The position numbers and the translations under genes were made by a program. The notes beneath the pieces are model-generated. The model saw nothing but the letters and a program-made list of their open reading frames with translations, made no database searches and had not been told where the DNA came from. Shown here piece after piece: positions 15,477-47,515 of a stretch of DNA of 64,000 nucleotides. The first letter of the stretch is position 1. Each line of letters opens with the position of its first letter. This DNA is from a virus (taxonomy: Duplodnaviria; Caudoviricetes): IMG/VR virus record IMGVR_UViG_2974778606_000001, positions 68,886-132,885 of that record; one strand, 5' to 3'.

Positions 15477-15547
15477 GCCCCTATAGTCTAAGGGTAGGAT
15501 ACAAGATTCTCAATCTTGTGGTCGGAGTTCAACTCTCCGTAGGGGTA
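15477..15547 (+). tRNA. tRNA-Glu(CTC)
   Basis: CAAGA-TTCTCAA-TCTTG. Confidence 0.9.
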
Positions 15548-15548
15548 C

Positions 15549-15809
15549 GTGGCACCACCAAAGATACCAACTCAAATAGAAGCGAAATTAGTAGTGGCTA
15601 TACTCTGTGGAGTGATTGGCTCACTACTAGCAAGCTTTCTCATGATGGGTTGTATCGCAGAGACAAATGAAACTAGCAAGATGAAGGCATGTGTCTCTAA
15701 GGGTTATGAGTGGGTAGCAGCGCCCGGTGGTCCTGAGTGCAAGAAGCCGGTTGACATAGTGTTTCAACCAAGCTACGATAGTAACAACGAAACAGACAAG
15801 CCCCGTTAG
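15549..15809 (+). CDS. Small membrane protein starting 2 nt after tRNA-Glu
   Basis: TM helix; GTG start. Confidence 0.6.
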   Translation: MAPPKIPTQIEAKLVVAILCGVIGSLLASFLMMGCIAETNETSKMKACVSKGYEWVAAPGGPECKKPVDIVFQPSYDSNNETDKPR

Positions 15810-15874
15810 TCTAGCGGCCTAGGATTCCAGACTTTCAATCTGCGAGAACGTCGGTTCGAATCCGACACGGGGTA
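15800..15874 (+). tRNA. tRNA-Glu(TTC)
   Basis: CAGA-CTTTCAA-TCTG. Confidence 0.85.
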
Positions 15875-15950
15875 CGTACAAAGTGGTCCTGTCTGATGCG
15901 CAGGTTAAATACTATCAAGACGTTACTAGTGCGTCTGAAAGTGCCATTAT

Positions 15951-16023
15951 GCGGGTGTCGTCTAGCGGCTAAGGCCCCATCCTTACAAGATGGTCATCGG
16001 AGGTTCGAGTCCTCTCACCCGTA
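15951..16023 (+). tRNA. tRNA-Val(TAC)
   Basis: CCATC-CTTACAA-GATGG. Confidence 0.9.
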
Positions 16024-16110
16024 CGAGTCCCCGTCAGAGGCTAGAGGATGACGACCTACATTCTGACAGCAGTTGGGCACACCATAGTTAGGATAGCCAC
16101 GAACTGCATT

Positions 16111-16187
16111 GGGTTTGATTGGTATGACGTTAGTGAAAGCCGACAATGGACCGCTAACCGCAGAGGGTTCGAATCCCTCCAAATCCA
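16111..16187 (+). ncRNA. tRNA-like RNA resembling the tmRNA tRNA-like domain
   Basis: GGGTTTG/CAAATCC-A acceptor with G3.U70, stemless D loop, perfect T arm. Confidence 0.65.
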
Positions 16188-16367
16188 CGTTGGAAGGTGT
16201 TGAGGTGAGAGAAAAGTTGGTCACTCAGTATCTCTGCTCATTGTGTAAGGTCTAACCAACCATCACACCAGGCACGAATCTGGCCCTTCCGTAGACTTGA
16301 TGATAAAGACCCCTAAGCTGATATTCCATATCAGCCGGACACTTGGCGGTGACGCCTTTCATCATAT

Positions 16368-16442
16368 GCTCCCATAGACCAATTGGCAGGAGTCGCACGG
16401 CTTAGACCCGTGAATGTGTCGGTTCGAATCCGACTGGGAGTA
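16368..16442 (+). tRNA. tRNA-Leu(TAG), short variable loop
   Basis: CACGG-CTTAGAC-CCGTG. Confidence 0.85.
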
Positions 16443-16581
16443 CTCCATAACTACAAAGACAAGGATACAGGTGGCAGCCTGCCCCAAGGGTGGAAAGCAC
16501 GATTGGAAGATATGGTCTGGAAAGTATCGCTGTCGTAAGTGTGGTGAAACAAGTAAGATACAGCCTGCTTAGGTTGTTTAT

Positions 16582-16660
16582 GCGTCTGTGGTGGAATGGT
16601 AGACACGCTGGTCTTAGGAACCAGTTCTTCGGAGTGCAGGTTCGAGTCCTGTCAGACGTA
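16582..16660 (+). tRNA. tRNA-Leu(TAG)
   Basis: CTGGT-CTTAGGA-ACCAG, variable arm. Confidence 0.9.
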
Positions 16661-16713
16661 CTTTGACTGTCATCCGGAGTCAGTCAAATGCATATAGGGT
16701 CGCTCCCTATATG

Positions 16714-16841
16714 AGGAACATAGTTTAAATGGGAGAACGGCGAAATGCGCTGTCGAACGGGAGATGCTGCCGAGCTAAAGGTGGGTTCTTTGCTAGTAGA
16801 TAACAGAGTAGTCAGTGTCGGTTCGAATCCGGCTGTTCCGC
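16714..16841 (+). ncRNA. tRNA-like RNA with about 75 nt replacing the anticodon arm
   Basis: GGAACA/TGTTCC acceptor, D arm GTTT/GAAC, T arm GTCGG-TTCGAAT-CCGGC. Confidence 0.65.
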
Positions 16842-16980
16842 TAGCCTGCGACGACGTTTCGATGTAGGTCCCCTAGGGTTTGCGCAGACCCGAAGGGCAT
16901 TCGAGAAAGGTGCCTAGCTAGGTCCGTCTATCAATAGGGTGAGAGTTTTTCGCGGTTTTCCTCATAATTAAACCGTGCTT

Positions 16981-17052
16981 GGTCCTTTAGCTGAGATAGA
17001 TTAGCGATAGCCTGAAAAGCTTTAGAGGTCGGTGCGATACCGTCAGGGACCA
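16981..17052 (+). tRNA. tRNA-Phe(GAA), non-canonical T loop
   Basis: Loop CTGAAAA; T loop TGCGATA. Confidence 0.8.
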
Positions 17053-17182
17053 CAATGAATGGATGACTCATCTGATTTCGAATAGGATGTTGAATCCATG
17101 CAGGAGGCCCGGTATGCTAGCTAGGGTAACGGATGTTGCATGACGGCTTCGGACATCCAAAAACAAACAGGAAACCGTCCCC

Positions 17183-17253
17183 TCCGTAGTGGTGTAACGG
17201 TAACATACCTCCTTGCCAAGGAGGCGTCGCGGGTTCGATTCCCGTCTACGGGA
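17183..17253 (+). tRNA. tRNA-Gly(GCC)
   Basis: CCTCC-TTGCCAA-GGAGG. Confidence 0.9.
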
Positions 17254-17258
17254 CTCTT

Positions 17259-17333
17259 GCCCCAGTATTGGCCCGGCCTTCTAAGCCAGAGGCGCATAAT
17301 GGAAAGATGCAGGTTCGAATCCTGTCTGGGGTG
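17259..17333 (+). tRNA. Atypical tRNA-Arg(TCT) lacking a normal D arm
   Basis: GCCCCAG/CTGGGGT acceptor, GGC-CTTCTAA-GCC, canonical T arm. Confidence 0.6.
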
Positions 17334-18117
17334 CGTGAAGGTGAGAAAAATGGTCGTATATTACGACGGTGTCAGCGAAGAAGAGGAAGACAAGCTTATG
17401 GAAGCTGTAGAAAATATCCTCTGTCCGAATGCTGAAGAAGAGAATCATGAATGCAGAATGCATCTGATGACCTGGCAGACCGTTGACGACTACAACGATG
17501 AATGAAAATGCTCGGTAGAAAAGTCTGGAGAGGCCAGACGTTCGAGGACTCTCCGCTTAAAAACAAAATTTGGAGGCGTCGTGAACGAAGAGACTGGCAG
17601 CGAGAATGGAGTCATGACAGACTTGGTTCTGGCAGGAATTCTTCAGATTGAAGAGATAGAAGAAAATGGTGACATTCTACTATCTCTTGACTGGGAAAAG
17701 CTTTACGAATACGATTCAAACATCTACTACTACCTCAGAGAAGCTGAGCTAAACGGTGAGATGATACAATAGGGACATGAAGACCTATGAAATCGCAGTT
17801 AGCCTGTTGCTGTCAGTAGAAGCTCCTGACAAATCAGACGCACTTGAAGCAGTCAAGGACACGTTTGGTGAAGGTGAAATCTGCGGAATAGATATCAAGG
17901 ACATCGAGGTTGAAGTTGTCGATGAACTTTGATATGCTGTCTAACGTACCAGGTGTTGAGTTCTTCCTTAAGTGCACATTTTGCCCGGAAGAGTCAGACG
18001 GTAACTTGACAGTAGAGCTTGAACCTGGTATGTTTGTACCAATGCCAATCTGTGAAGATTGCTTGGAGCAGCAAGCCAAGAACTTCAATATGATTGAAAG
18101 TCCTGAATAAGGACTAT

Positions 18118-18192
18118 GGGCGGTTAGTGTTAATGGTAGCACGAGTGCTTTGCACGCATTAAGCAGGGGTTCGAATCCCCTACTGTCCACCA
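18118..18192 (+). tRNA. tRNA-Ala(TGC), CCA encoded
   Basis: G3.U70; AGTGC-TTTGCAC-GCATT. Confidence 0.9.
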
Positions 18193-18272
18193 GAACTGGG
18201 TTTGATTCAACAAAGGCTTAGGCTTAGAGGTGTACCACTCGGTTCTTAACTTCCTGCGCAGGGAGGTGCAAA

Positions 18273-18347
18273 ATGACACCAGAAAGAGCATTGGCAATTG
18301 GAATTCTAGCACTAGTGCTACTTGCAATTTTGTTTGCCGTTCTGTAA
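18273..18347 (+). CDS. 24-aa hydrophobic peptide MTPERALAIGILALVLLAILFAVL
   Basis: GGAGG RBS; single TM helix; below the ORF-track size cutoff. Confidence 0.6.
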   Translation: MTPERALAIGILALVLLAILFAVL

Positions 18348-18462
18348 AAATATTGGCTGGCCGATACGAACCCCATCGTATCCTTGCCCGAGGGTTAGGG
18401 ACCAGCATTTATTATGCCCGAGCTAGGTACTTAGGAGTCGGGAGAATGTAACCCTAGCGTAT

Positions 18463-18537
18463 GCTCCAGTCGCACAGTCTGGTAGTGCAACGGACTCTTA
18501 ATCCGTGTGGACGTCGGTTCAAATCCGACCTGGAGTA
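18463..18537 (+). tRNA. tRNA-Lys(CTT)
   Basis: ACGGA-CTCTTAA-TCCGT. Confidence 0.9.
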
Positions 18538-18591
18538 CATAAACCACCCAATCCCTAGTGGATTGGGTTTTTTCATGCTACAATAATTAGT

Positions 18592-19140
18592 ATGACTACA
18601 CCAAAGAAGTACACCCCAAGACCAGGTGACATTGGACTGACCCGAATCGGTGGCCTTACAGGCGTTCTAGTGGGCCTAGGGCAATTCATCTTGAGGGATG
18701 CGAGCAGATACACCCACGTCTTTGTTGTTTTGGACAACGAGGAAGTCATAGAGGCGATGCCAGCTGGAGCAATCATCAGCCCGCTGGACAAGTATGCTGG
18801 AACTACTAAGTATGGAAGTCCACTGGCAGCTTACCTAGACATCAAGTTGACACAGGAGCAGCGAGACGCTATCGTAAGAGAAGCCCGGCAGCTAGAGGGA
18901 GTTCCATATAGCTTCCTTGACTACGTTGCCTTGGCACTAGAACGTGTTGGCTTGCACTGGAAGTGGATTGAGAATAGAGTCACTTCTAGCAAGCATCTAA
19001 TCTGTTCCCAATTGGCCGATGAAGCCTATAAGCGTGCAGGTGTTCATCTGTTCGAAGATGGTAGGCTATCTCAAAAGGTCACTCCTGGGGACTTGACGTA
19101 CGTAGGATTTGACCAGAGGTACGATGAAGAAGTGCTCTGA
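18592..19140 (+). CDS. Permuted papain-like NlpC/P60 (YiiX-like) protein
   Basis: PGDI, YTHV, G.PYS, ICSQL..EAY, TPGDL. Confidence 0.75.
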   Translation: MTTPKKYTPRPGDIGLTRIGGLTGVLVGLGQFILRDASRYTHVFVVLDNEEVIEAMPAGAIISPLDKYAGTTKYGSPLAAYLDIKLTQEQRDAIVREARQLEGVPYSFLDYVALALERVGLHWKWIENRVTSSKHLICSQLADEAYKRAGVHLFEDGRLSQKVTPGDLTYVGFDQRYDEEVL

Positions 19141-21234: not shown

Positions 21235-21306
21235 GTCCCTATAGTTTAGAGGATAGAACGTCACTCTCCTAAAGTGAAGACGCAGGTTCGAGTCCTGCTG
21301 GGGATA
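21235..21306 (+). tRNA. tRNA-Arg(CCT)
   Basis: TCACT-CTCCTAA-AGTGA. Confidence 0.9.
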
Positions 21307-21307
21307 C

Positions 21308-21556
21308 ATGGACGATAAAGTATATCTAGTTTTTCAATGGACAGACAACGATGACCCCGATTACGAAACGGATATCGAATATCTGGGGGTCGCAATGTCA
21401 GAGAAGCGAGCGAAGGAAGTCATCGACGCCTTTAATCCTGGTCCTGATTGGGAAAAGAATGGCGAATATGAATGGCGCTGGACCGAAAAGCAGTCCAATG
21501 GCTGGACACGTTGGGCCGAGACTGGTGTGACATACACCCCTCTTGACATCCTGTGA
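21308..21556 (+). CDS. Hypothetical protein starting 2 nt after tRNA-Arg
   Basis: 82-aa ORF. Confidence 0.7.
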   Translation: MDDKVYLVFQWTDNDDPDYETDIEYLGVAMSEKRAKEVIDAFNPGPDWEKNGEYEWRWTEKQSNGWTRWAETGVTYTPLDIL

Positions 21557-22254: not shown

Positions 22255-22329
22255 GGTCCGGTCGCACAGTCTGGTAGTGCAATTGACTTTTAATCTTTGA
22301 GGACGTGGGTTCGAATCCCACCCGGACCA
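22255..22329 (+). tRNA. tRNA-Lys(TTT)
   Basis: Loop CTTTTAA; weak anticodon stem; strong acceptor and T arms. Confidence 0.8.
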
Positions 22330-22330
22330 C

Positions 22331-22489
22331 ATGGGTAATAAGGTATGGAATAAGGGTGATAAGGTCATCCGAAACAATAACACTGATGCTGGTACTGTTG
22401 AGAAGCAAGACGGCCGGTGGGTGATAGTTACCCTTGACACTGGTGGCCAGAAGCGTCTTGGTGCCAACGATTTGAAGCGAAGGCGTTGA
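22331..22489 (+). CDS. Small SH3/KOW-like protein (52 aa)
   Basis: MGNKVWNKGDKV...GTVEK; overlaps next gene (TGATG). Confidence 0.6.
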   Translation: MGNKVWNKGDKVIRNNNTDAGTVEKQDGRWVIVTLDTGGQKRLGANDLKRRR

Positions 22490-25336: not shown

Positions 25337-25408
25337 GGTGGCTATAGCATAAAAGTAATGTTCAAGGCTGTGAACCTTGAGAAGAGGGGGCGGTACCCTC
25401 TAGTCACC
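25337..25408 (+). tRNA. tRNA-His(GTG), G-1:C73, odd T loop
   Basis: CAAGG-CTGTGAA-CCTTG. Confidence 0.8.
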
Positions 25409-25609: not shown

Positions 25610-25685
25610 GGGGTTGGTAGCTCAATTGGACAAGAGCGCTGCGTTGTGGTCGCAGTGGTTGCGGGTTCGAGTCCCGTCCTTCCCA
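25610..25685 (+). tRNA. tRNA-His(GTG)
   Basis: CTGCG-TTGTGGT-CGCAG; two T.T mismatches in acceptor. Confidence 0.8.
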
Positions 25686-25686
25686 C

Positions 25687-26016
25687 ATGAATAGAATGAG
25701 AAAGGCGGTCGGTGTTGCTAGCCTTCTTCTCGTTCTTGTTGGATGCGGTAGCGATAACAAGGATAGTCTTACAACTAGAGACAAAGCGTATGTAAATACT
25801 CTGAGAGAAGAAATCACTGGCGTCAAAGATATGAGCGACACCAAGCTAGTAGCCCTAGGCAGAGAAGCTTGTGCAAGCTCAGACAATGGTGATAACTTCA
25901 ATGAGACCGTTCGCAAAGTAAGCAACTATGGTTTGACAGAAAGTGATTCTGCTTATCTGACAGGAGCTGCATTCGCTGCTTATTGTCCAAGCAACGTCCC
26001 AAAAATCGGAAGCTGA
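25687..26016 (+). CDS. DUF732-like lipoprotein
   Basis: Lipobox LVGC; D.AY...L, LG.EAC, AA.AAYCP. Confidence 0.75.
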   Translation: MNRMRKAVGVASLLLVLVGCGSDNKDSLTTRDKAYVNTLREEITGVKDMSDTKLVALGREACASSDNGDNFNETVRKVSNYGLTESDSAYLTGAAFAAYCPSNVPKIGS

Positions 26017-27519: not shown

Positions 27520-28077
27520 ATGAAGATATTTTACGATACAGAATTTTTTGAGTGCGGACCCAAGCAGCCCATCAGGTTCATCAGTCTTGGCGCGGTACGT
27601 GATGATGGTAACGAGCTGTACCTCATCACCAACAACCTCTATACGCTCAACAGAGCAAATCAGAATCCATGGCTGGCGGAGAACGTCATCAAGCATTTGC
27701 CGGTAAAGCAGAAGGACGATGGAAGGCTTGCTTGGGACACTCAGCACGCTGACTATCATCGAGTTCTGCCGAACGAGGTGATTGCTGGACTATGGAGAGA
27801 CTTTGTGGTGGACTATGACCACGAGTCAGAGTTTGACAAGCCTGAGCTGTGGGCATACTATGGAGCCTATGACCACGTAGTCATCAGTCAGCTCTTTGGC
27901 AAGATGATTGACTTGCCAGATGGCCATCCGATATATACGATGGACATTAAGCAACGATGGCACAACGAAGGCCAGCCTGGTCTGCCCGAGCAAGAAGCCA
28001 ATGCTCACAGAGCACTTGACGACGCCCGGTGGAACAAGCTAGCATATGAGTATCTTGATGAGTACGCCAACAGGTGA
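27520..28077 (+). CDS. DEDDh 3'-5' exoribonuclease (Rv2179c/RNase AS-like)
   Basis: FYDTEF, ISLG.V, AYYGAYDHV...QLFG.M, HRALDDA.WN. Confidence 0.85.
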   Translation: MKIFYDTEFFECGPKQPIRFISLGAVRDDGNELYLITNNLYTLNRANQNPWLAENVIKHLPVKQKDDGRLAWDTQHADYHRVLPNEVIAGLWRDFVVDYDHESEFDKPELWAYYGAYDHVVISQLFGKMIDLPDGHPIYTMDIKQRWHNEGQPGLPEQEANAHRALDDARWNKLAYEYLDEYANR

Positions 28078-28086: not shown

Positions 28087-28354
28087 GGGAGTGACCAGGT
28101 TTCGACTGGTGTGGATGATTGTAGTTTGCAGCCTGACATTGAGGAGATGTCATTAAAAAGCCTCAACCCTATAAATGCCAACTCTAAGTTCGCATTCGCT
28201 CTTGCTGCCTGACGGTAGCTGAGCGGGGCTAGTGGAGCGGCCTGGCAACAGAAGGCTCCACCCACAAACTTTCTCGCAACACCCCTTGACACATGGCTGT
28301 GTATAGACTACTGTTTGAAGCGTCAGGACGGGGGTTCGATTCCCCCCACTTCCA
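28087..28354 (+). ncRNA. ssrA: tmRNA, tag (A)ANSKFAFALAA encoded at 28177-28212
   Basis: GGGAGTGA..GGTTTCGAC 5' end, G3.U70, GGAC-GGGGGTTCGATTCCCCC 3' end, ATAAAT before the GCC resume codon, LAA-stop. Confidence 0.95.
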
Positions 28355-28673
28355 CTGGAGGAATAATGCCTAAATGGATGAGGCTCAAGTCAACTGGTGA
28401 TTATCCGTTTCATCAGCGAGTTCTCTCGTCATATGAGAATGGTTTCGATGAGGGCCCGGTGGCTAAGTTTACCGCCTTCGTCATTGCTGTTATCGTCATA
28501 GTACTGGGAATGGTAGTCTTTATCATCCCACTACTCATCTGGTTTGCAATCAGGGACGGAGTGAAGAAGCTCTTTGGACTACGAAACGCTGATGACAAAG
28601 TGGATGGAAGCAATCCGCAGGATTAAGCAAGGTTGACACAAGACAAGACATCGAGTACAGTTGTACGATATGT

Positions 28674-32199: not shown

Positions 32200-33300
32200 A
32201 TGAAGTTCACCAAGATTTTCTCTCAGGACTTGCTTGACCAGATGGTCAACGAGGGTTTTGTTCGGGTGCAGACTCATCCGGTCCTCCCTCTGCGAATCCT
32301 GAACTACTCTGAGAAGGCTCAGTTCGCTGGCAAATGGAACGCTTGCACGCTGGCGTGCCGTGGCCTTATCATCGACGAGTTTGACAATGTCATTGCTCGT
32401 CCGTTTGAGAAGTTCTTCAACATGGGGGACTCTCACGCTGCTGACATTGACTGGGATGCTCCAGTTGAGGTAACGGATAAGAAGGACGGCTCTATGGGCA
32501 TCCTTTACTCCGTAATGCCATACGATGACTCAATTCCGCCTTACGGTTTTCAGTACGGAATTGCTACTCGTGGTAGCTTTAACTCAGACCAGGCAATTCA
32601 CGCTACGAAGCTGTGGCTTGAGCGATACAAGAACACTGCCGTGCCTCACGACTGGACGTTTATTTTCGAGATTGTCTACCCTGACAACCGAATCGTTCTG
32701 GACTATGGAGACATGGACGACCTCATTCTTTTGGGTGCGGTCAACAAGGAGCACGGCTACGTGTACGGTCCTCGTGAGGCTGCGGCTTTGCTGGATTGGC
32801 AGGGGCCGGTAACCGAGGTGTTCGATTACAAGAATATTCACGAGGCTGTTGGTGCACCTTACCGCAGCAATGCTGAGGGTCTTGTAATCCGTTCTGGTAG
32901 CAAGATGGTCAAGCTTAAGCAGGCTGACTATGTTGAGCTACACCGACTGATTTCAATGCTTTCCGAGCGCTCTGTATGGAGTCAGCTCGCTGAGGGCAAG
33001 ACGATTCTGGAGATTTGTGAGGCTCTGCCTGACGAGTTTCACCAGTTCGTCAAGGATGTCGGTGGGCAGCTTCTTCGGAAGTTCCAAGACATGGAGATTC
33101 TTGCCTGGGACAACTACAATGCAGTAATCGAGAGGCTTCCAAAGAACTTCACTCGACGTGATTTCGCAATGGAGGCCAACAAGGTTGACTACTTCCGTAG
33201 CCACATGTTCATGCTGCTTGACGGCAAGAGCATCGATGAGCTAATCTGGAAGCAGTTGAAGCCAGAGGCTAAGAAGGAGGATGGCTACCCAATCGGGTAG
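32200..33300 (+). CDS. RNA ligase, T4 Rnl1 family
   Basis: CRGLI, PFEKFFN, KKDGS (motif I), TRGS, FEIVYPDNRIV, EGLV, KLK...Y. Confidence 0.9.
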   Translation: MKFTKIFSQDLLDQMVNEGFVRVQTHPVLPLRILNYSEKAQFAGKWNACTLACRGLIIDEFDNVIARPFEKFFNMGDSHAADIDWDAPVEVTDKKDGSMGILYSVMPYDDSIPPYGFQYGIATRGSFNSDQAIHATKLWLERYKNTAVPHDWTFIFEIVYPDNRIVLDYGDMDDLILLGAVNKEHGYVYGPREAAALLDWQGPVTEVFDYKNIHEAVGAPYRSNAEGLVIRSGSKMVKLKQADYVELHRLISMLSERSVWSQLAEGKTILEICEALPDEFHQFVKDVGGQLLRKFQDMEILAWDNYNAVIERLPKNFTRRDFAMEANKVDYFRSHMFMLLDGKSIDELIWKQLKPEAKKEDGYPIG

Positions 33301-33844: not shown

Positions 33845-34741
33845 ATGGCACAGCTTCTCATCCTCCGGGGCGTTCCGGGATGCGGAAAGTCCACTTTTGC
33901 TCACCAGTGGCTCAAGGAAGGTGAGCGTCGTGCCCGCGTAAACCGTGATGACATTCGCATGCAGTTCTTCGGTAAGGAGACTGGTGTAGATGAGGACATG
34001 GTTACCAAGATTGAGCACATGCAGGTTGACAGCCTGCTCAAGGCTGGATACTCTGTGGTTGTCGATGACACCAACATTCGTCACAAGTACATCACAGAGT
34101 TTGTGAAGATTGGTATGCGTCATGGGATTTACGCTTCAGTGAAGCAGTTTGCGGTTGATGTAGAAACTGCAATCGAGCAGAATCGTAAGCGTGCTGCGGC
34201 TGGGGGACGAAATGTTCCTGAGCACGTCATCCGTAAGATGCACCAGTCTATGAAGTCTAGTGGACTGTACAAGTACAGCTCTGCTCTGGAGGATGCGCGG
34301 GCTGTCAAGCCTTACATTCGCCCGGAAGGTGCAGAGAAGGTTTACCTCTTTGACATTGATGGCACTCTTGCTGCTATGTCTGACAGGTCTCCCTTTGACT
34401 GGTCTCGTGTTGGTGATGATGACCCTCGTAAGCAGGTCATTCTGACAGCGCAGGCCCTTGCGAAGGCTGGCTACAAGATTATCGTCATGAGCGGTCGTGA
34501 TGGCTCGTGTCGCAATGAAACAATCAAGTGGCTTCAGTTCTACGATGTTCCTTTTCACGTTCTGTTTATGCGTGCTGAGGGAGACATGCGCAAGGACAGT
34601 ATTGTCAAGCAGGAGCTGTTCGACAAGCTGATTCGTGATACATACGATGTTGTGGCTGTCTTTGACGACCGCAACCAAGTTGTCGAGATGTGGCGTGCAA
34701 TGGGCGTAGACTGCTTCCAGGTTGCGCCGGGAGATTTCTGA
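33845..34741 (+). CDS. pseT: Polynucleotide 5'-kinase/3'-phosphatase (PseT-like)
   Basis: GVPGCGKST, NRDDIR, DDTN; HAD DIDGT, SGR, FDDR.QV. Confidence 0.92.
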   Translation: MAQLLILRGVPGCGKSTFAHQWLKEGERRARVNRDDIRMQFFGKETGVDEDMVTKIEHMQVDSLLKAGYSVVVDDTNIRHKYITEFVKIGMRHGIYASVKQFAVDVETAIEQNRKRAAAGGRNVPEHVIRKMHQSMKSSGLYKYSSALEDARAVKPYIRPEGAEKVYLFDIDGTLAAMSDRSPFDWSRVGDDDPRKQVILTAQALAKAGYKIIVMSGRDGSCRNETIKWLQFYDVPFHVLFMRAEGDMRKDSIVKQELFDKLIRDTYDVVAVFDDRNQVVEMWRAMGVDCFQVAPGDF

Positions 34742-35876: not shown

Positions 35877-35958
35877 GCGCCCATGGTGGAATGGCAGACA
35901 CACTAGGCTGAGACCCTAGGCTCGAATGAGCGTCCGAGTTCGATTCTCGGTGGGCGTA
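35877..35958 (+). tRNA. tRNA-Leu(GAG)
   Basis: CTAGG-CTGAGAC-CCTAG, variable arm. Confidence 0.9.
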
Positions 35959-35959
35959 C

Positions 35960-36163
35960 GTGGCAAAATACAGAGTAGGTCAGCAGATTGTAGTGACGCA
36001 GTTCGTGCAAAAGGGGGTTGAGTATTCTGGCAGAAGAGGCTTCGTTGAAATTGTAGAAACGCGAGGTCGCTATACGGTCCTGTTGTACGAAACGACATAC
36101 AACGGTATGAAGGTACCCGAATGCACGATTGATGTTAAGGAGAATAACATCAGGAAGGCTTAA
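35960..36163 (+). CDS. Small SH3/KOW-like protein starting 2 nt after tRNA-Leu
   Basis: YRVGQQIVV...SGRRGFV. Confidence 0.65.
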   Translation: MAKYRVGQQIVVTQFVQKGVEYSGRRGFVEIVETRGRYTVLLYETTYNGMKVPECTIDVKENNIRKA

Positions 36164-36234
36164 ATCCGCTTAGCTCAATGGTAGAGCGCTTGCTCGACAC
36201 GCAAGAGACGTGAGTTCAATTCTCTCAGTGGGTA
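36164..36234 (+). tRNA. tRNA-Val(GAC)
   Basis: CTTGC-TCGACAC-GCAAG. Confidence 0.8.
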
Positions 36235-36659
36235 CTGTCGATAAAGGAGAAAAATGTTCAGCATTTATGATATTGCAGCACACGCGCTTGGTGTTGCGTA
36301 TCCAAATGCACCACAAGAATGGCTTGACAGAGCAGCGCGAGAAACAGTAAGCTTCTCTACAAGGCATAAGAATCCAACACCAGAGCAGCGAGACGCATTT
36401 AACGCTCGCATTGAGAGAATGTGTACAACAGGAGAGTGGTAAATGTTTGACAGTGACAGTGTTAAGGTTGGCATTCTGGTTCTTCTCGGATTTCTCGGTT
36501 TCGTTTTCGCTATCACTGGTGGAATCGTTGCTGACAAGTACATGGACAATCAGCGAGTCAGCGAATGTATTTCGGCCGGAAAGATTTGGGCCGAGGATTC
36601 ATGTGTAAACAATGTCAATGAACTTCGGTACGTTGACAACGACTGATTCGTCAGTCCCT

Positions 36660-36733
36660 GGCCCTGTAGCAGAATGGCATATGCGGCTCCCTCAAAAGGA
36701 GTGTCAATGTGGGTTCGAGTCCCATCAGGGCTA
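36660..36733 (+). tRNA. tRNA-Leu(CAA), short variable loop
   Basis: GCTCC-CTCAAAA-GGAGT. Confidence 0.85.
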
Positions 36734-36969
36734 CGTGGAATATAAATTGGGTAAAGCGCCGGAAGGCTATGAGTGGTCTCTTGAGAATGCAGATGGAGAC
36801 CCGTTGTTCTCTGGACGTAAGGGAACAACCTATGGAATCATCGTCACTAAGAACAAGAAGTTCGTAGAACGACGTGGAGTCTTTGTTCCAGAAGAGAGGG
36901 CTGGGGACACCCAGTCTTTCATTACTGCAATGGAAGAAAGCCTGCGCCAGTCCCTCTGAGGGACACCTT

Positions 36970-37054
36970 GGAAGGTGAGCGAGAGGTCTCGCGGACAGTT
37001 TGCTAAACTGTTGGGCTCTGAATTGGGCTCGGGGTTCGAATCCTCCGCCTTCCG
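36970..37054 (+). tRNA. tRNA-Ser(GCT)
   Basis: ACAGT-TTGCTAA-ACTGT, long variable arm. Confidence 0.9.
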
Positions 37055-39039
37055 CGTGTATTATATCAACTGCTCACGATGTGGACCGCATATGGCAACT
37101 TCATATTATATGGAGAATGGCGTATGTGGTCCTTGTCTTTTGGTTGCAATCACAGAAGAACTAGGACTGTATGAAGGGAGGTCAAATGAAGAAGAAGTGG
37201 GTTCCCATGGGGAACAGGGTCATGGATAAGGCGTACATGTATGACAAATCAGGCAACGTACACACTGGTGAAGCTCTGCTACTTGCGCTACTATTGCATA
37301 CGAAGGGCAAGACCAAGCGAGGCCAGGAAGAGATGGCTGAGGTTGGTAAGATTATGAAGGACCGTAACCTACCAAAGGAAAGGAAGAATGGCAACAGGCG
37401 AAGGACCCAAGCTCGTTAGTTATTACGAGTGGTGGTACTGTGACATTGAAGAATTCGTGAAGAATCTCTGGGGTGACAAAGCAAAGTGGGAGGGTGGAGC
37501 AGCAATGTACTTCCCTGCCCAAGACACTTATCACGATGTCGATGTTGATGGCGGATGGGTTGGCGAAGGTTACGACGGCTCAGGCAAGATAATCAATACT
37601 AGGTGGCTGACAGAAGACCTGACCTATGAAGAGGGTAAGGCCATCATTGACAGGTTTAGGGAGCATGGAATGCCTCGTGAGGAGGGCGCTAGCCCCAGCG
37701 TAGAACTTTTGCTCAACTGGCTAGCGTTTGAAAACATCATTCCTACTGGCAAATACCGAGTGACGGTGTATTGGTAATGGGATGGGGTTCAGGAACCAGC
37801 TACTTTGACTATCCTCTAGACCTCATGCTAGAGTATGTCCCAGAAGACAAGCGCAAGGAAGTCATCGAGAAGCTGTACCGAAGCATCAGAGATGGTGACT
37901 GGGATACAGTCGATGAGTCTGCTTACTTCAACCTTCTTGTCAAGTATGACATTGATGGGTATGGTGAGTTGAAGAATGACCCTGACTATCTTGCAGAACT
38001 TAGTGAAGATGAGAAGAAGGAACTTCAAGATGACTAATTATGTTCAACAAGTCAAGGATGCTCTGGCCGAACTTCATCCTCGGATGGAATCAGAGCTGCT
38101 TGACGTGTACACTCTGCTTGTGTTGGTAAAGGGAGAGGCCGTTACGCTCAAGGATGTCCATGACGCGTGGTCTGTCTGGAAAAATAACATTCGTCCAGAC
38201 CACCGTTCATTGATTGAATTTGATGAGCTGACTCCAGAGGTTCAGGCACTCGACCAGCGATATGCTGATAGCATTGCTCTGGTCGCAAAGATTCGAGAGA
38301 TTGTCCTTGCGAACAAGACAACGTAATCTTGGTAGATGTAAGTGTGGTCGGCCAATCTTGACTGGCCACCTTCGTCAATACAATGGTGAAAACACCAAAC
38401 TTTGCCCGGCATGCAATGCTGAGGCTATGATTGAGGAGGTTAGGAATCGTGTCCGGCCCGAGGGTCTTGACAGCACTGATTCTGACGGGTACGATACTTA
38501 ACATAACCTTCCTCGCTCTCGCTGCAAACGAGGTAAATAAGGCGATTGAGGGAGTTAGCGATGACGTACAGCGAAATGCGTGTAGATATGCGAATCCGGA
38601 ACTTGAAGACTGGTCTCAAAGCGACCATTGCCACCAAAGAAAATGGCAAGTTTCGAATCGTTGACGAAAATGGCCACGTAGAAGATATCGACCGATATCA
38701 TGCTGGCGATTGGGAACCGATAAGGTGAATTGACATGTCTGACCCGAAAGTGTACGATGCCCTAGTACGTCTTGAGTACGACTATGAAAACGAATATGGC
38801 GATTCAAGGCGCGGCTGGGTTACTTTCGTAGGGGAGTGGCATAGCAATGTGCCAGTTCCTGCTATGATTAACAAGATTGCTTCAGAGCTGGAGAGCCAAG
38901 CAAAGCAGGGCGAGACTCCAGACCAGAAGAATCTGAAGAATTTCATAGTCACGAACTACAATTTCGAAGAGGCGATTGATGTTTAAAGGAGAAGGTAACC
39001 GGTCTTTCTAATAAGGACCGGTCTTTTCTGTCTCTGGCG

Positions 39040-42389: not shown

Positions 42390-43157
42390 ATGAAGATTGT
42401 CATCGCAGGTGACTGGCATGGTGACACGAATCACGCTCGAAAGGTTGTCCGTCTCGCGGCTCAGAATGGTGTCAAGGTCATCATGCAGGTTGGTGACTTT
42501 GGCTATTGGGAGCACGAGGTTGAAGGATTCAACTATCTTGACGCTCTGAATGATGAGTGTCGCAAGCATGGTGTCAAGGTCTACTTTGTGGCTGGTAACC
42601 ATGAGAACTGGGACCGTCTAGACTGGATGGAGAAGAATAACCCAAAGACCTACGCAGGTCTGACCGTTATCCGTTCTCACATTCGCTACACTGGCCGTGT
42701 GAAGCGCTGGAGTGTGAATGGCAAGTGGTTCCAGGCTGTTGGTGGTGCTGTCTCTGTCGATAAGGCACACCGAAAGCTTGGTAAGTCTTGGTGGGCTCAG
42801 GAGGCTGTACCTGAGAATGTGGTAAGGGGTCTTGAGAATGCTGGTCGTCAGTCTGACTACCTTCTTACTCATGACGCTCCAACCTGTGCCCCATTCAGGT
42901 TCCGTCTCAAGAATGACCCTGACTCTCAGATGCATCGAGAGTTGATGAATCGAATCGGCCGAGTCGTAAAGCCAAAGATTTGGTTTCATGGACATTACCA
43001 CACGTGGATGGAGAACTATCCTTTCATGCACCAGAGCGGCTACAGCAGCGTTTATGGTCTTGAAATGAATGGAGACTTCTACCACTGTGTTGTCCTTGAC
43101 ACTGAGAACGATTCAGTGGAGACTAGGACTGGTAAGGTCATCGAGCTAGAGCAGTAA
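42390..43157 (+). CDS. Calcineurin-like metallophosphoesterase
   Basis: GDWHG, GDFG, GNHE, THDAP, HGHYH. Confidence 0.9.
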   Translation: MKIVIAGDWHGDTNHARKVVRLAAQNGVKVIMQVGDFGYWEHEVEGFNYLDALNDECRKHGVKVYFVAGNHENWDRLDWMEKNNPKTYAGLTVIRSHIRYTGRVKRWSVNGKWFQAVGGAVSVDKAHRKLGKSWWAQEAVPENVVRGLENAGRQSDYLLTHDAPTCAPFRFRLKNDPDSQMHRELMNRIGRVVKPKIWFHGHYHTWMENYPFMHQSGYSSVYGLEMNGDFYHCVVLDTENDSVETRTGKVIELEQ

Positions 43158-43244
43158 CCTCCGCTTCATAATCAAGTCTGTGTTACTCTTTTAGAGAATT
43201 CTTCAAGAATGCGCAGACTTGAGGAGAAGGAGGTGAAAGTAAAA

Positions 43245-43622
43245 ATGGCAGATAACAAGTACGAATACAAGCCAAAGACATCTCAGGATGTTGTTGCACC
43301 GCATCTTGACCCACTAGCAGGTGAAGACGCAAAGCTGGCAGAAGACGCAAACGTAAAGGACGCAGCATTTGTTGACTATGAGGAAGCTCTAGACAACTAC
43401 CAGTCTCGTCCAGACGTTGAGACTCTGGCCGCACGTCGTGCACGTGAGGGTGGATGGAAGTTTGAGGACGCTGCGTTCCGTCGTTCTACAAAGGACGACG
43501 AGCTAACTGGTGGTGGCGTAGTCACCTCCGATGAAAGTGCTCCTACCAGAACTTCTGACTCAAAGAGTGTTGACCAGGACCAGAAGTCCTCTTCATCACC
43601 AGCACGTAAGTCCAGCAAGTAA
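43245..43622 (+). CDS. Hypothetical acidic protein
   Basis: AAGGAGG RBS; followed by a terminator hairpin. Confidence 0.7.
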   Translation: MADNKYEYKPKTSQDVVAPHLDPLAGEDAKLAEDANVKDAAFVDYEEALDNYQSRPDVETLAARRAREGGWKFEDAAFRRSTKDDELTGGGVVTSDESAPTRTSDSKSVDQDQKSSSSPARKSSK

Positions 43623-43921
43623 GCATAGACTTTAAAATTGAACAGGGAGGTTAATAGCCTCCCTGTTCGTCATCAGCAAGAGAAAAGAGAAAGCGATTAT
43701 GTCTGTTGTTCTAGACTACAACTCAGTTGACCAGTTCGTTACTTCCCAGAAGGAAAAGGGAAATGACGTTCGCTGGGAGGGCTGGGACCTTATCTTCTTC
43801 CGTGCAAGCCGTAACCATGGCGGTTGGTCAAAGCGTGAAGGCGCTTACCGCAATGGTAACTGGGGATTCCAGACGCGCGTAACGGTTGGAAGCGATGGCA
43901 AGTGGAGGGTTCCTAACCGTA

Positions 43922-44362
43922 ATGTACGGTCTGCCTGATAGATTTCTCGAAAAGATTACCATTGACTCCTCTGAGTGTTGGATTTGGAACTCAGTAAAGG
44001 ATGCTGGTGGATATGGTTTGTTTCGAGTAAACGGTAAGTGGGTAAAGACCCACAGATACACTTTTGAAATGGCAGGCGGGACGCTCAACGAGTCCCTAGT
44101 TATTGACCATCTGTGTAAGGTAAGAGAGTGTTGCAATCCGCATCACCTTGAACAGGTCACAATGGGAGAGAACACTAGGCGTGGCAATGCAGTAAAGAAT
44201 CGTAAGGCTCAGGCCGCAACGATTACTAAATGCGTGCAGGGTCACGAATTCACTCCTGATAACACATATGAATACAAAGGTAGGCGTATGTGTAAAGCGT
44301 GTCGTGCCAGTCGTAGAAATGTGGCAAGAGACGCGAGGAGGAAAAATGTCAAGCATTCTTGA
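43922..44362 (+). CDS. HNH homing-type endonuclease
   Basis: CWIW, GYG.F, HR, IDHLC....CCNPHHLE.VT..EN. Confidence 0.85.
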   Translation: MYGLPDRFLEKITIDSSECWIWNSVKDAGGYGLFRVNGKWVKTHRYTFEMAGGTLNESLVIDHLCKVRECCNPHHLEQVTMGENTRRGNAVKNRKAQAATITKCVQGHEFTPDNTYEYKGRRMCKACRASRRNVARDARRKNVKHS

Positions 44363-44654
44363 GCAAAGGGGCATAAGTCCAGAGGAAATTGAGTGGGAAG
44401 ACCTGGCACTATGTCGTGGTCTTCCCACTTCTTTCTTCTTTGAGACTTATGAGCAGGACAAGATTTCTGCCCGGTACGTAGACGAGATGTGCCTTAGCTG
44501 TCCAGTAATGAAGCAATGTGCAATGGCAGCCAAGGATAACAATGGCTTTGGAGTTTGGGGCGGCGTTTATTGGAACGCTGCAAAGGTAGACACTTATCGT
44601 AATGCCCACAAGACTCCAGAGGTGTGGAAGAGAATCAAGGAGAGGTTGTCATGA
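44346..44654 (+). CDS. whiB: WhiB-family transcription factor
   Basis: ALC....FF, C..CPV..QC, GVWGG. Confidence 0.88.
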   Translation: MSSILEQRGISPEEIEWEDLALCRGLPTSFFFETYEQDKISARYVDEMCLSCPVMKQCAMAAKDNNGFGVWGGVYWNAAKVDTYRNAHKTPEVWKRIKERLS

Positions 44655-45341
44655 GTGTCGAGAACGCTTGGGCCTTGATGCAGATGCAGAAGACTGAGGA
44701 GCTGTTCAGGGAATTCAGTTTTGAACCAGGTACAGGATTCACCTGCGACCTTGTTAAATACCCTGCAACGCAGCACGACGTTCCTAACTATGCACTCAGG
44801 GCGTACAGCAGCACCTATGACAATCTCACTGAGCACCAGAGGATGCTAATCGCAGAACAGATTGGCAGACTCATTCAGTCGATTCGTTCCCTTGGTGTAA
44901 ACTGTATATTGGAGGTCCATGATGCACCGGGAAAGTCAGGTAGTAAGGGTAGAAACGGATGAAGGTCTGGCGCTCGGAATAATTGAGAAGGTATTGGCGT
45001 TTCATTGTCTGGTGAAGTATTGGGATGATGAGGGCGAATGGCAGCTTGATTACTTCGAGCATGACGACGTTGAGGTCATTGGCGAAATAGGATATGAGGT
45101 AGAGTGAGAGAACTAGTTTGTGATAGCTGTGGGGGTCAGAGGTTCAGCCTAACTTCTGTGCAGTCAAAACTTCTCGGAACCATGTCTTTCAATCTGTGCA
45201 ACGGATGCAAGGACGATGGAAGAGAGCCACGATGGCTCATTGTTTTGGCGGCACGGAATGGTCAGGATGTGAGTCCCTGGCTTGACAACAAGCTATACGA
45301 TGGAGCAGAAATCAAGCAGGAGGATTTGAATTAAGCCTCCA

Positions 45342-45397
45342 GGCCGGGTATACTAGGCACATCTAGGGAACTATGGGGTTCGAATCCCTACCGGCCG
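45342..45397 (+). ncRNA. Minimal 56-nt tRNA-like element
   Basis: GGCCGG/CCGGCC acceptor, GGG-TTCGAAT-CCC T arm, single central hairpin. Confidence 0.45.
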
Positions 45398-45704
45398 CAA
45401 TACAATCCCCTTGAGGGGAGGAAAGTGTACGTTGAAAGCGATGAAGATGTATCTCAGTGTATAAGAGATTTGACTAAGGAGATTTGGGCAACTATTAAGA
45501 TGGTGCTGAGGGCCCAAGCAACATCAGAGCAAATATCTGATGCTGCTTCTAGGGCTAAATTTCTCCGTCTATACATTGACCGATATCGCTTCAAGAGGTT
45601 CGATTCGCTGACCGAAACTGAACTTTGGTTGGCTCAGGAGGTCGCAGACGCGGTTGAAGACTTGATTGATTGACTTTTAACTCATCTGTGATTACAATTC
45701 AGGT

Positions 45705-46106
45705 ATGTCCAGGATATCAACAGCACTAGTGAAGATTTTCAAGCATCCTCTCATAGTTGTAGAGGTGATTATTGCTGCTGGTTTGCTGGTCTCAGGATTG
45801 TACGCAGTAGGTCCATGGTATGTAGCCAATGCCACCACACCGATTGGTCAAGCAATTGATTCGACCGGTGTGAGAATGGCAATTGGTGGGTTTTATACTA
45901 TAAGCGCAGTTACTTCGCTGTGGGGAGCGTTCAAGTTTCAGGATGAGAACAGGTCAATAGGACTGTTTCTCATGTTCCTATCGTATTCTTTCATGACCAT
46001 TCTTAGATGGATGGCAATAGGTTTCACTCCTTTGACTTGGGTATTCAGCCTTACCTTGGCACTCATTGTGGCATTCCTATACTTTAGGATAAGGTTGCTG
46101 AAATAA
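45705..46106 (+). CDS. Membrane protein (4 TM)
   Basis: Hydrophobic segments. Confidence 0.7.
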   Translation: MSRISTALVKIFKHPLIVVEVIIAAGLLVSGLYAVGPWYVANATTPIGQAIDSTGVRMAIGGFYTISAVTSLWGAFKFQDENRSIGLFLMFLSYSFMTILRWMAIGFTPLTWVFSLTLALIVAFLYFRIRLLK

Positions 46107-46415
46107 ATGCCCGAGATTACTACGGCTTGGATAGCCTTGATTGGTACAGTGCTGGGTGGGGTTGGACTGAAGTTTGTCGAACACTGGCTCAGTCGTAGCA
46201 AGGTTCGGGACGACACAGCCGCTCAGCTCAGAAACGAATTGAGGACCGAAATCCAAGGACTCAAGCAAGAGCTGAACAATGTCGAAGCCGACCTAGACAA
46301 GTGGCGTGGAAAGTATTACGAATTGATGGACAACTTTATCAAAGTCAAGAGTGAACTTGAGACGGCCATGCGGCAGCTACAAAACAACAACAACACAGGC
46401 CCTAGCGCAAGCTAG
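46107..46415 (+). CDS. TM plus coiled-coil protein (possibly lysis-related)
   Basis: N-terminal TM, C-terminal heptads. Confidence 0.6.
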   Translation: MPEITTAWIALIGTVLGGVGLKFVEHWLSRSKVRDDTAAQLRNELRTEIQGLKQELNNVEADLDKWRGKYYELMDNFIKVKSELETAMRQLQNNNNTGPSAS

Positions 46416-46888
46416 GGCGTTGTGCTATCGTAAGGAGCATGATGATGGAAGCAGTGATGGAACGTCCTCTTCGTAAGACTGAGGACAGATGTGACAAGTG
46501 CAACGCTCAGGCGTTCATGATTGCAGAGAAGGGCACAATGGCGTTGCTGTTCTGCGGTCATCATGGTAAAAAGTACAGCGAGTCACTTGAGCAGCAGGGA
46601 TGGGAGCTGCTTGACTTCACCGACGAGATTGGCTAGAGTGGAGACATGGACAGCGAGCAGATGTACCTTGTTGGCGACATCGTTGAGATTTTCTTCAGCA
46701 GCTCTGGCAACCGAAAGTGGGTTGGACTCAAGGCGGAGGTGCTTCCTTGGCCAGAGAATGAGGAGCAGTATGAAGATGGCGAGCTTCACAATTGGCTGAA
46801 GCCTCTTTCTGACCGGCCTGATGGGCTTGAGCGAATTGAGTTCATGTGGTCTACTAGGAATCTTCGTAAGGTCGGGTAACCGACCCAT

Positions 46889-46968
46889 TCCCCAGTTGCT
46901 CTGTTTGGTAGGGGCCGCCTGACTTTGAATCAGGATTAGCGACGTTGGTTCGAATCCAGCCTGGGGAG
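46889..46968 (+). tRNA. tRNA-Gln(TTG)
   Basis: CCTGA-CTTTGAA-TCAGG. Confidence 0.85.
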
Positions 46969-47515
46969 CATGCTTAGTGATAAGGACAATATAGAATTCG
47001 ACAACATCGACATCTCTGCCGAGGGAGGCTTTCTTGTTATTGTCTTCAAGGCAGGGGATGAGCCTGTTGGCCGTTGGCGAATCGAAAAGAAGAATCGCGG
47101 AAAGATTATTTGGACGATGTGGAAGATGCACAGGAGGGCATTGAAGTGGCGGAATATTCCTTCACAGACCACCGAGGGCGACGGGTCAACAAAGGAGACC
47201 GAGTAAAGGTCTTCAAGGCTCCCAAGGGCAATGAAGCATGGATTGGGTGCACTGGTGTGGTGACAAGCATTAAGCTGCCATATGAGAGCCTGGTTCAACT
47301 CTTTGACCTTGAGGGGCAACCCAAGTCGTATAAAGACAGGTTCGTCTATCATCCCGCTGAGTTTCTGGAGAAGGTGTGATAAGTAAGCTGGAAGCTGTTG
47401 CAATTTCGGGACTGGGGTTTGCGGTTCTGGGATTCGGTTGGATTGTTTTTGTGTACAAGAAGTTCGTTGAGGGCCAGGGTTGATTCCCTGGCCTTTGGCC
47501 ATGTAAGGAGACAGA

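Follow-up and report, generated by a model that had tools for sequence, protein, structure and literature searches.

How are genes translated whose start codons lie directly against the 3' end of a tRNA? This question is raised by a 64,000-nt stretch of viral DNA (positions 68,886 to 132,885 of IMG/VR record IMGVR_UViG_2974778606_000001; hereafter, the window), the source of which is a Streptomyces cluster-BE phage. ARAGORN and Infernal/Rfam found approximately 41 tRNAs and one tmRNA in the window, all on the + strand, and were concordant on the tRNA 3' ends, where the Rfam matches stop at the discriminator N73 and C74 follows. A first-pass annotation had proposed that nine ORFs begin exactly at discriminator, C and start codon, and this geometry was reproduced with both programs: an ATG or GTG stood exactly at tRNA position 75, after N73-C74, behind eight ARAGORN tRNAs and a weak ninth, Arg(TCT)-like element (Table 1). 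At these flush junctions the start codon follows C74 immediately (0 nt), so that neither a promoter nor a terminator would fit in between. The ORFs that they open encode 52-109 aa and likewise all lie on the + strand, and flush tRNAs make up ~15-20% of the phage's tRNAs (8-9 of ~41 in the window). An ATG or GTG that begins an open frame of 40 codons or more is found at 1.2% of + strand positions in the window; on this baseline, the probability that at least 8 of 40 tRNAs would be flush by chance was 2.7e-8. Duplication of one module was rejected as the source of the pattern because the nine ORFs are not paralogues (blastp).

Table 1. tRNAs and flush ORFs at the nine junctions (window coordinates; tRNAs are given through C74).
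Feature	Coordinates	Strand	Evidence
tRNA-Glu(CTC)	15477..15548	+	ARAGORN; Rfam 63.3 bits, N73 = 15547
Flush ORF after Glu-CTC, GTG, 86 aa, membrane protein-like	15549..15809	+	PHROG 15436, E 1e-40
Arg(TCT)-like tRNA, atypical D region	17259..17334	+	Rfam 29.5 bits
Flush ORF after Arg(TCT)-like, GTG, 56 aa, start ambiguous	17335..17505	+	PHROG 30926 profile begins at residue 1
tRNA-Arg(CCT)	21235..21307	+	ARAGORN; Rfam 66.6 bits
Flush ORF after Arg-CCT, ATG, 82 aa	21308..21556	+	Borderline DUF7336
tRNA-Lys(TTT)	22255..22330	+	ARAGORN; Rfam 57.0 bits
Flush ORF after Lys-TTT, ATG, 52 aa	22331..22489	+	Flush in 3 relatives, dN/dS 0.11
tRNA-His(GTG)	25611..25686	+	ARAGORN; Rfam 57.2 bits
Flush ORF after His-GTG, ATG, 109 aa, DUF732 lipoprotein	25687..26016	+	Pfam DUF732, E 3e-14
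tRNA-Leu(GAG)	35877..35959	+	ARAGORN
Flush ORF after Leu-GAG, GTG, 67 aa	35960..36163	+	dN/dS 0.13
tRNA-Leu(CAA)	36660..36734	+	ARAGORN; Rfam 54.9 bits
Flush ORF after Leu-CAA, GTG, 74 aa	36735..36959	+	PHROG 13443 aligns from residue 1
tRNA-Ser(GCT)	36970..37055	+	ARAGORN
Flush ORF after Ser-GCT, GTG, 57 aa, zinc-ribbon-like	37056..37229	+	Two CxxC pairs
tRNA-Gln(TTG)	46889..46969	+	ARAGORN; Rfam 38.9 bits
Flush ORF after Gln-TTG, ATG, 78 aa	46970..47206	+	PHROG 37606 aligns 1-78 of 78, E 1e-33

Sequence comparisons mark the flush ORFs as genuine genes: seven families were tested, and their median dN/dS values were 0.11-0.35, at dS values of 0.6-1.6 (2.8 in the sole two-member family). The family of 15549..15809 has a flush GTG in 4 relatives (dN/dS 0.14), and that of the DUF732 lipoprotein, whose product in the window carries a signal peptide and an LVGC lipobox, is flush in 8 relatives (dN/dS 0.14). 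The stop codon of 35960..36163 adjoins tRNA-Val(GAC), which starts at 36164, and this ORF therefore has a tRNA on either side. The stop codon of 15549..15809 is a TAG at positions 8-10 of the next tRNA, tRNA-Glu(TTC). An RNase P cut at this tRNA would strip the stop codon from the ORF, a counterpoint to the mechanism that we propose below.

The alignments with relatives likewise indicate that the flush codon is the true start, with the possible exception of the Arg(TCT)-like junction. N-terminal residues were conserved right up to the flush codon, in-frame indels beside the start left the junction flush, and the first codon of the flush families switched only between ATG and GTG, an alternation that is seen in the family of 35960..36163. 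True starts at downstream codons led by a Shine-Dalgarno (SD) sequence, which would have spoken against the first-pass annotation, were not seen outside the possible exception. The first alternative in-frame start of 21308..21556 does not occur before codon 30, no alternative in-frame start was found within the first 40 codons of 46970..47206, and the first CxxC pair of 37056..37229 lies upstream of the next in-frame ATG. The Arg(TCT)-like element at 17259-17333 was uncalled by ARAGORN and barely passed the Rfam threshold (29.5 vs 29 bits), and its ORF has a rival in-frame ATG at 17350 preceded by an SD-like AAGGTGAG; in three relatives this junction retained a flush GTG, GTG and ATG, with an in-frame indel. 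Three of these starts are flush in the annotation of phage Anedea, including that of the counterpart of 22331..22489, and two were moved downstream.

The arrangement recurred across a comparison set of 14 related contigs with 400 tRNAs, in which 57 of the 59 ATG or GTG triplets at position 75 opened an ORF of at least 40 codons. Counted by offset from the discriminator, such starts numbered 57 at offset 2 and 11 at most at each of the remaining offsets between 1 and 60, in agreement with the earlier observation that the spacing is identical each time. Junctions with leaders of 1-3 nt between the processed-end position and the start were few, and offsets 3, 4 and 5 held 2, 5 and 7 ORF starts in the 14 contigs. 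Flush ORFs belonged to 25 protein families unrelated to each other and followed 14 tRNA species as called by ARAGORN, or 15 counting the Arg(TCT)-like element. Arg-CCT, Leu-GAG and Glu-CTC each had three different ORF families flush behind them (for Arg-CCT, two families in relatives besides that of the window), and the DUF732 family was flush behind three different tRNAs, i.e., Phe-GAA, His-GTG and an atypical Phe-like element. The exact spacing was kept in relatives down to 55% identity of the anchor protein. The tRNAs of the 14 contigs that lack a following ORF showed no common motif at positions 75-77.

Flush genes lack an SD, and their displaced homologues have acquired one. In the 20 nt upstream of the flush starts, the median energy of the anti-SD duplex was -3.1 kcal/mol, vs -3.6 kcal/mol for random sequence, and pairing was thus no stronger than by chance; the first-pass annotation had argued that any SD-like sequence in the paired acceptor stem would be occluded. 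In two flush families, 6 of 6 homologues sitting 14-311 nt from a tRNA had an SD (-7.4 to -12.4 kcal/mol): the two displaced homologues of 36735..36959, the family of which is flush in 6 relatives, have GGAGG or AGGAG upstream, and the SD was present in 4/4 displaced homologues of 37056..37229. Start codon choice was also restricted, as all 57 flush starts were ATG (~73%) or GTG and none was TTG, and 0 of 28 TTG triplets at position 75 opened an ORF. Actinobacteria translate leaderless mRNAs efficiently in an ATG/GTG-dependent manner, and in mycobacteria a 5' ATG or GTG suffices, while TTG fails (Shell et al. 2015, PMC4633059).

The position of the junctions corresponds to a cut known from actinobacterial hosts. 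Differential RNA-seq in S. coelicolor showed that tRNA 3' processing leaves downstream products with a 5'-monophosphate, the 5' ends of which lie directly after C74, both in CCA-encoding tRNAs, which are cut "between the Cs", and in CCA-less tRNAs (PMC4681348, text and Table S4). The tRNA precursors of P. acnes are likewise cut after C74, without an RNase Z homologue (PMC3848588). Host tRNAs follow a pattern in which C74 is encoded and CCA is added later (PMC4681348, Table S4). Among the phage tRNAs of the 14 contigs, C74 was present in 391 of 400, with no encoded CCA; in the window, only 2 tRNAs encode a full CCA. A search of the phage genome found no CCA-adding enzyme of the PolyA_pol family (PF01743). 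The first-pass annotation had noted a constant C between the discriminator and each start codon, with the processed end expected at the start codon or 1 nt before it. The constancy stands; since the S. coelicolor cut follows C74 and not N73, however, this C is part of the tRNA rather than a leader, and the RNA would begin at AUG or GUG. Mycobacteriophage Bxz1 has C74 in 32/32 tRNAs yet only 1 flush ORF, and C74 alone is therefore insufficient for the arrangement. In the control phages, coliphage T5 and Vibrio phage KVP40, there were 0 flush ORFs among 51 tRNAs, and CCA was encoded in 50 of the 51.

Because the flush starts fall at the exact Streptomyces cut site, tRNA trimming probably frees a leaderless message. 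We propose that the tRNA array and the intervening small genes would be transcribed as long + strand RNAs, that a host tRNA 3'-processing endonuclease (RNase Z SCO2547 is one candidate) would cut each precursor directly after C74, and that the host CCA-adding enzyme would then finish the tRNA. Where ATG or GTG occupies position 75, this cut would at the same time yield a downstream RNA that carries a 5'-monophosphate and begins exactly with the start codon, and actinobacterial ribosomes could translate this RNA as a leaderless mRNA, without an SD. Everything that this model predicts at the level of sequence was observed, i.e., the spacing, the true starts and the absence of an SD; we infer from these the cutting of phage precursors at the C74 site and the translation of the products. 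RNase J and RNase E act preferentially on RNAs with a 5'-monophosphate, and mRNAs released in this way might therefore not last long. Giliberti et al. (2012) reportedly dealt with the requirement of leaderless translation for a 5'-phosphate.

The flush codons might instead be true starts that are used by SD-less internal initiation on unprocessed polycistronic RNA, e.g. before the tRNA folds or on molecules escaping processing, and their position would then reflect compaction only. We regard this as unlikely. A weak SD, or none, is found in many of the leadered genes annotated in these phages, and SD-independent internal initiation therefore occurs in this system; in addition, the genomes are densely packed, and the overlap of at least one flush ORF with the next tRNA points to translation of RNA that has not been processed. 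However, with compaction as the sole cause, a range of small offsets would be expected, not the sharp peak at position 75 over its neighbors, and TTG is absent among the flush starts. Homologues displaced by just 14-33 nt acquired strong SDs, which argues that these genes do not by default rely on internal initiation without an SD. Furthermore, given the mRNA channel of the 30S subunit, 30S binding should be blocked by a folded tRNA lying 2 nt upstream.

It is improbable, in our view, that the junctions arose neutrally, as a side effect of recombination at conserved tRNA sequences, with tRNA-plus-gene modules exchanged as units and a spacing that plays no role in expression. The occurrence of one tRNA with different ORF families, and of one ORF with different tRNAs, does show modular exchange at the tRNA boundary, but a neutral origin leaves unexplained how a gene without SD and leader is translated, why the first codon is constantly ATG or GTG, why the junction is unshifted despite adjacent in-frame indels, and why displaced copies gained an SD.

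A promoter within each tRNA gene could direct transcription from position 75 and yield primary leaderless transcripts with a 5'-triphosphate, and elsewhere in the phage some leaderless genes do seem to be driven by promoters, with TACAAT-like hexamers lying 6-7 nt upstream of ATG (e.g. at 13015, 17777, 18592 and 45705). This is very improbable for the flush junctions: no -10-like hexamer at -12 to -7 recurs among the 3' halves of the 14 tRNA species, all that these have in common is the T loop, with its end 15 nt upstream, and the register tracks the tRNA end, not any promoter motif. Finally, the ORFs are short and mostly without known function, but the scarcely credible idea that they are chance frames or annotation artefacts, with triplet 75-77 serving as a tRNA trailer signal, was rejected by the offset counts, the dN/dS values, the DUF732 and PHROG family matches, the rate at which ATG and GTG at position 75 open long frames and the lack of a common 75-77 motif in tRNAs without a following ORF.

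Altogether, the release of leaderless mRNAs by tRNA processing after C74 is probably the best explanation of these junctions. If it is correct, what sets the translatable 5' end would be the processing nuclease, rather than a promoter or ribosome-binding site, and a fifth of tRNA-adjacent genes would be mechanically coupled to tRNA processing, independently of an SD. This would be a translation-start route undescribed for bacteria or bacterial viruses; as the first-pass annotation had stated for phages, we found no published account, in a literature search that covered a minority of subscription journals. The unusual cut after C74 in actinobacteria would gain a function, and disagreement among gene callers and annotators on starts, as in Anedea, would be accounted for. 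In addition, tRNA-C-ATG would serve as a compact design rule when genes are to be expressed without an SD in Streptomyces, and the system would be a tractable bacterial model of tRNA-punctuated gene expression.

We lean toward the view that the tRNA punctuation of mitochondria has a bacterial form, used by large Streptomyces phages and probably by many other phages rich in tRNAs. In animal mitochondria, for which tRNA punctuation was reportedly described by Ojala, Montoya and Attardi (1981), as in the phage, tRNAs in a polycistronic transcript mark cleavage sites, and their excision would release leaderless mRNAs. Both have contiguous tRNAs and mRNAs on one strand, and start codons that coincide with the processed 5' end, predicted in the case of the phage, or lie a few nt from it (57 flush). 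In contrast, the phage is a bacterial virus relying on host bacterial enzymes, only the minority of its tRNAs noted above are flush, its other genes are leadered, and its predicted cut follows C74 rather than N73. Mitochondrial mRNA 3' ends adjoin the next tRNA, often with incomplete stops, whereas the flush ORFs of the window have complete stops and most end 7-22 nt before the next tRNA, with only 35960-36163 ending flush. In plant mitochondria, tRNA-like t-elements are said to set mRNA ends via cleavage by RNase P or RNase Z (Forner et al. 2007); these are organellar and mostly non-functional tRNA mimics, whereas nearly all of the phage elements are full tRNAs with anticodons.

Among bacterial systems, MazF of E. 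coli is a stress toxin that cuts at ACA, leaves a 5'-OH and yields leaderless mRNAs (PMC3848588). As in our proposal, an endonuclease makes leaderless mRNAs post-transcriptionally; unlike with MazF, the phage site would be set by tRNA structure, no ACA is common to the junctions (as the cases with G73 and GTG show), and the product should carry a 5'-phosphate. Actinobacterial cleavage after C74 (PMC4681348, PMC3848588) occurs at the position that the phage junctions imply, and on the same N73-C74 without CCA, an architecture of host-type tRNA genes that the phage tRNAs share; those studies concern host tRNA maturation alone and tie the downstream product neither to translation nor to phages. 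The primary leaderless mRNAs of actinobacteria (PMC4633059) arise by transcription initiation, with a 5'-triphosphate and a promoter ~7 nt upstream, whereas the phage mRNAs would have a processed 5'-monophosphate end and the tRNA 3' halves at the flush junctions share no -10-like hexamer at that distance. In their 5'-terminal ATG or GTG, their lack of an SD and their avoidance of TTG, the two are alike.

The phage is a member of the Streptomyces cluster BE, with Anedea as its closest record (~94% identity); its genome of 132,885 bp bears terminal repeats, and the window covers the right-hand 64 kb. Related phages infect S. lividans, S. griseus, S. viridochromogenes and S. mirabilis. ARAGORN predicted 40 tRNAs and one tmRNA, all on the + strand, and Infernal added three weaker tRNA-like elements, including an Arg(TCT)-like RNA at 17259-17333. 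The tRNAs are interspersed with a set of six RNA-repair genes.

The first-pass annotation had claimed that nine ORFs open directly behind the discriminator base (N73) of a tRNA and a single C (here C74), and had inferred that tRNA processing releases them as leaderless mRNAs. Rfam matches to tRNAs stop at N73 while ARAGORN calls run on through CCA-matching bases, and both place the discriminator, then C, then an ATG or GTG triplet at eight of these junctions, behind tRNAs Glu-CTC, Arg-CCT, Lys-TTT, His-GTG, Leu-GAG, Leu-CAA, Ser-GCT and Gln-TTG (ORFs of 52-109 aa, hereafter called flush). Because ATG or GTG opens at least 40 codons at 1.2% of + strand positions, 8 flush tRNAs out of 40 would arise by chance with P = 2.7e-8. 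The ninth junction, behind Arg-TCT, was also found to be flush (GTG at 17335), with a competing in-frame ATG at 17350 that has AAGGTGAG upstream; relatives retain the flush GTG or ATG, and in one of them the SD-like stretch is gone. The nine flush proteins showed no kinship to one another. Near-flush junctions were also observed: tRNA-Asp(GTC) is followed by C74-AT-ATG and a 66-aa ORF from 9757 (window 9678-9957), where a cut after C74 would give a 2-nt leader, and similar leaders of 1-3 nt occur in relatives, e.g. C-GTT-ATG behind Arg-TCT in three phages. In one metagenomic relative, a counterpart of the element with the GAA anticodon loop (see table) lies flush in front of the DUF732 gene.

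Additional tRNA-like elements, the tmRNA and RNA-repair genes in the window
Feature	Position	Basis or class	Remarks
Extra tRNA-like element	16981-17052	Rfam tRNA, 44-46 bits, without ARAGORN call	GAA anticodon loop, odd T loop; C74 next
Extra tRNA-like element	25338-25408	Rfam tRNA, 44-46 bits, without ARAGORN call	C74 next
RlaP-type nucleotidyltransferase	4188-4709	RNA-repair set	
Ro60 (TROVE + vWA)	11326-12972	RNA-repair set	
Rv2179c-like 3'-5' exoribonuclease	27520-28077	RNA-repair set	adjoins tmRNA
T4 Rnl1-like RNA ligase	32200-33300	RNA-repair set	
Polynucleotide kinase-phosphatase	33845-34741	RNA-repair set	
Metallophosphoesterase	42390-43157	RNA-repair set	
tmRNA	28087-28355		phage-encoded

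We gathered tRNA regions from 13 related IMG/VR contigs, a sample that reaches metagenomic relatives with an anchor protein just 55-62% identical, and counted 400 tRNA instances (14 contigs in all). Position 74 was C in 391 of the 400, and ATG was the most frequent triplet at positions 75-77. When ATG or GTG occupied these positions, it opened at least 40 codons in 57 of 59 cases. The spacing seen in the window held across related genomes, with 57 such starts at the flush offset versus a maximum of 11 at any other offset from 1 to 60 (2, 5 and 7 starts at the three offsets that follow). The 57 flush ORFs sort into 25 mutually unrelated families and are preceded by 14 tRNA species (15 with the Arg(TCT)-like tRNA missed by ARAGORN), which argues that the arrangement recurs and is maintained, rather than reflecting a single inheritance. 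Three tRNAs, Arg-CCT, Leu-GAG and Glu-CTC, have three different families flush behind each of them. In the window the DUF732 lipoprotein gene (ORF 25687-26016) is preceded at 25611-25686 by a His(GTG) tRNA with two acceptor-stem mismatches, as in Anedea; the family is flush behind tRNA-Phe(GAA) in seven relatives, and in one metagenomic contig the element in front of it is an atypical Phe-like one. At this locus the tRNA was exchanged and the flush junction retained.

Comparative data indicate that the flush ORFs are genes and that the flush codon is their start. Median pairwise dN/dS was 0.11-0.35 in the seven families tested, at dS of 0.6-1.6 (2.8 in the sole two-member family). Six flush proteins matched PHROG families, with three matches from residue 1 and a fourth from residue 3 versus profile position 2, and one flush protein carries Pfam DUF732 and a lipoprotein signal peptide; the products of the ORFs at 21308, 22331, 36735 and 46970 lack a signal peptide. 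In flush families the first codon is variable, but it is always ATG or GTG. Four families have in-frame insertions of one to three codons immediately past the start, and the Arg-TCT family has a one-codon deletion at this place; the junction was unmoved in every case. Several flush ORFs have no further in-frame start for 30-40 codons, and the first CxxC pair of the Ser-GCT ORF precedes its next ATG.

The 20 nt upstream of flush starts are the 3' part of the tRNA. Their anti-SD pairing (median -3.1 versus -3.6 kcal/mol for random sequence) exceeded neither random sequence nor other tRNA 3' ends. Stronger evidence comes from a natural experiment: six displaced homologues from other phages, belonging to the Leu-CAA (ORF 36735-36959) and Ser-GCT (ORF 37056-37229) families, lie 14-311 nt from the tRNA, and 6/6 have a GGAGG-type SD (-7.4 to -12.4 kcal/mol) with the usual spacing to the same start codon. 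Since the SD is present in every displaced homologue and absent when flush, genes of these two families appear to need it only away from the tRNA. Flush genes may instead be started by SD-independent internal initiation, a less likely alternative that is kept because leadered genes with a weak SD are common in these phages.

In our main model, which is probable, tRNA 3' processing after C74 would free a leaderless mRNA, as in mitochondrial tRNA punctuation; a cut at the flush junction would yield a downstream RNA beginning pAUG... or pGUG.... Romero et al. 2014 (PMC4681348) mapped 5'-monophosphate ends in S. coelicolor, which are the 5' ends of downstream products; they report that CCA is absent from 53/65 tRNA genes and that the cut lies 'between the Cs' in most tRNAs with an encoded CCA, and in nearly every S. 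coelicolor row used from their Table S4, CCA-less tRNAs included, the cut falls directly past the C after the discriminator. The same group found the same cut in P. acnes, which is without an RNase Z homologue (PMC3848588). The near-invariant C74 of the phage tRNAs fits this host rule, and a search of the phage genome for a PolyA_pol-family CCA-adding enzyme found none. Mycobacteria translate leaderless mRNAs efficiently if, and only if, ATG or GTG stands at the 5' terminus, and TTG fails (PMC4633059); here each of the 57 flush ORFs starts with ATG or GTG. We infer that phage tRNA precursors are cut after C74 and the products translated. A point against the model is that RNase J and RNase E are drawn to monophosphorylated 5' ends. 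Some other genes of the phage appear to be leaderless and driven by promoters of their own, because TACAAT/TATACT-like -10 hexamers lie 6-7 nt upstream of the ORF-opening ATG at 13015, 17777, 18592 and 45705 (also 3242).

Some ORFs also meet the next tRNA at their 3' ends. The stop of ORF 15549-15809 is supplied by U8-A9-G10 of the following tRNA (15800-15809), and a TAG from tRNA positions 8-10 ends 17 upstream ORFs, this one and those at 16 other tRNAs in related contigs, with a 10-nt overlap. RNase P cleavage at such a tRNA would strip the stop codon and leave a non-stop message, which also counts against the model. In the stretch 35960-36235, ORF 35960-36163 is bounded by tRNAs on both sides, starting at position 75 of tRNA-Leu(GAG) and stopping one base before tRNA-Val(GAC); excision of both would leave an mRNA without any untranslated bases. 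Its flush 3' side was found in no relative.

Each of the three components, tRNA punctuation, leaderless translation and the cut after C74, is known on its own. Our literature searches, consistent with the first-pass annotation, found no paper describing phages that combine them to express genes, and some CDSs flush to tRNAs are already in existing annotations without comment. An IMG/VR scan for T-arm-N11-CATG returned many unrelated contigs; among the matches listed, 54 lay at tRNA 3' ends, and at 28 of the 54 C74-ATG junctions the ATG opened at least 40 codons (contigs of 29-59% GC), in a sample that is pattern-selected and whose ORFs are known as open frames only. This hints that the flush arrangement may extend well past actinobacterial phages. 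C74 without CCA is common in unrelated viral contigs (29-59% GC), e.g. 17/20, 12/12 and 20/20 tRNAs per locus. Coliphage T5 and Vibrio phage KVP40 encode the full CCA in 50 of 51 tRNAs, and none of the 51 has an ORF start within 5 nt of N73. In mycobacteriophage Bxz1, 32/32 tRNAs carry C74, yet there is a single flush ORF; its tRNAs are tightly packed, with few intervening genes.
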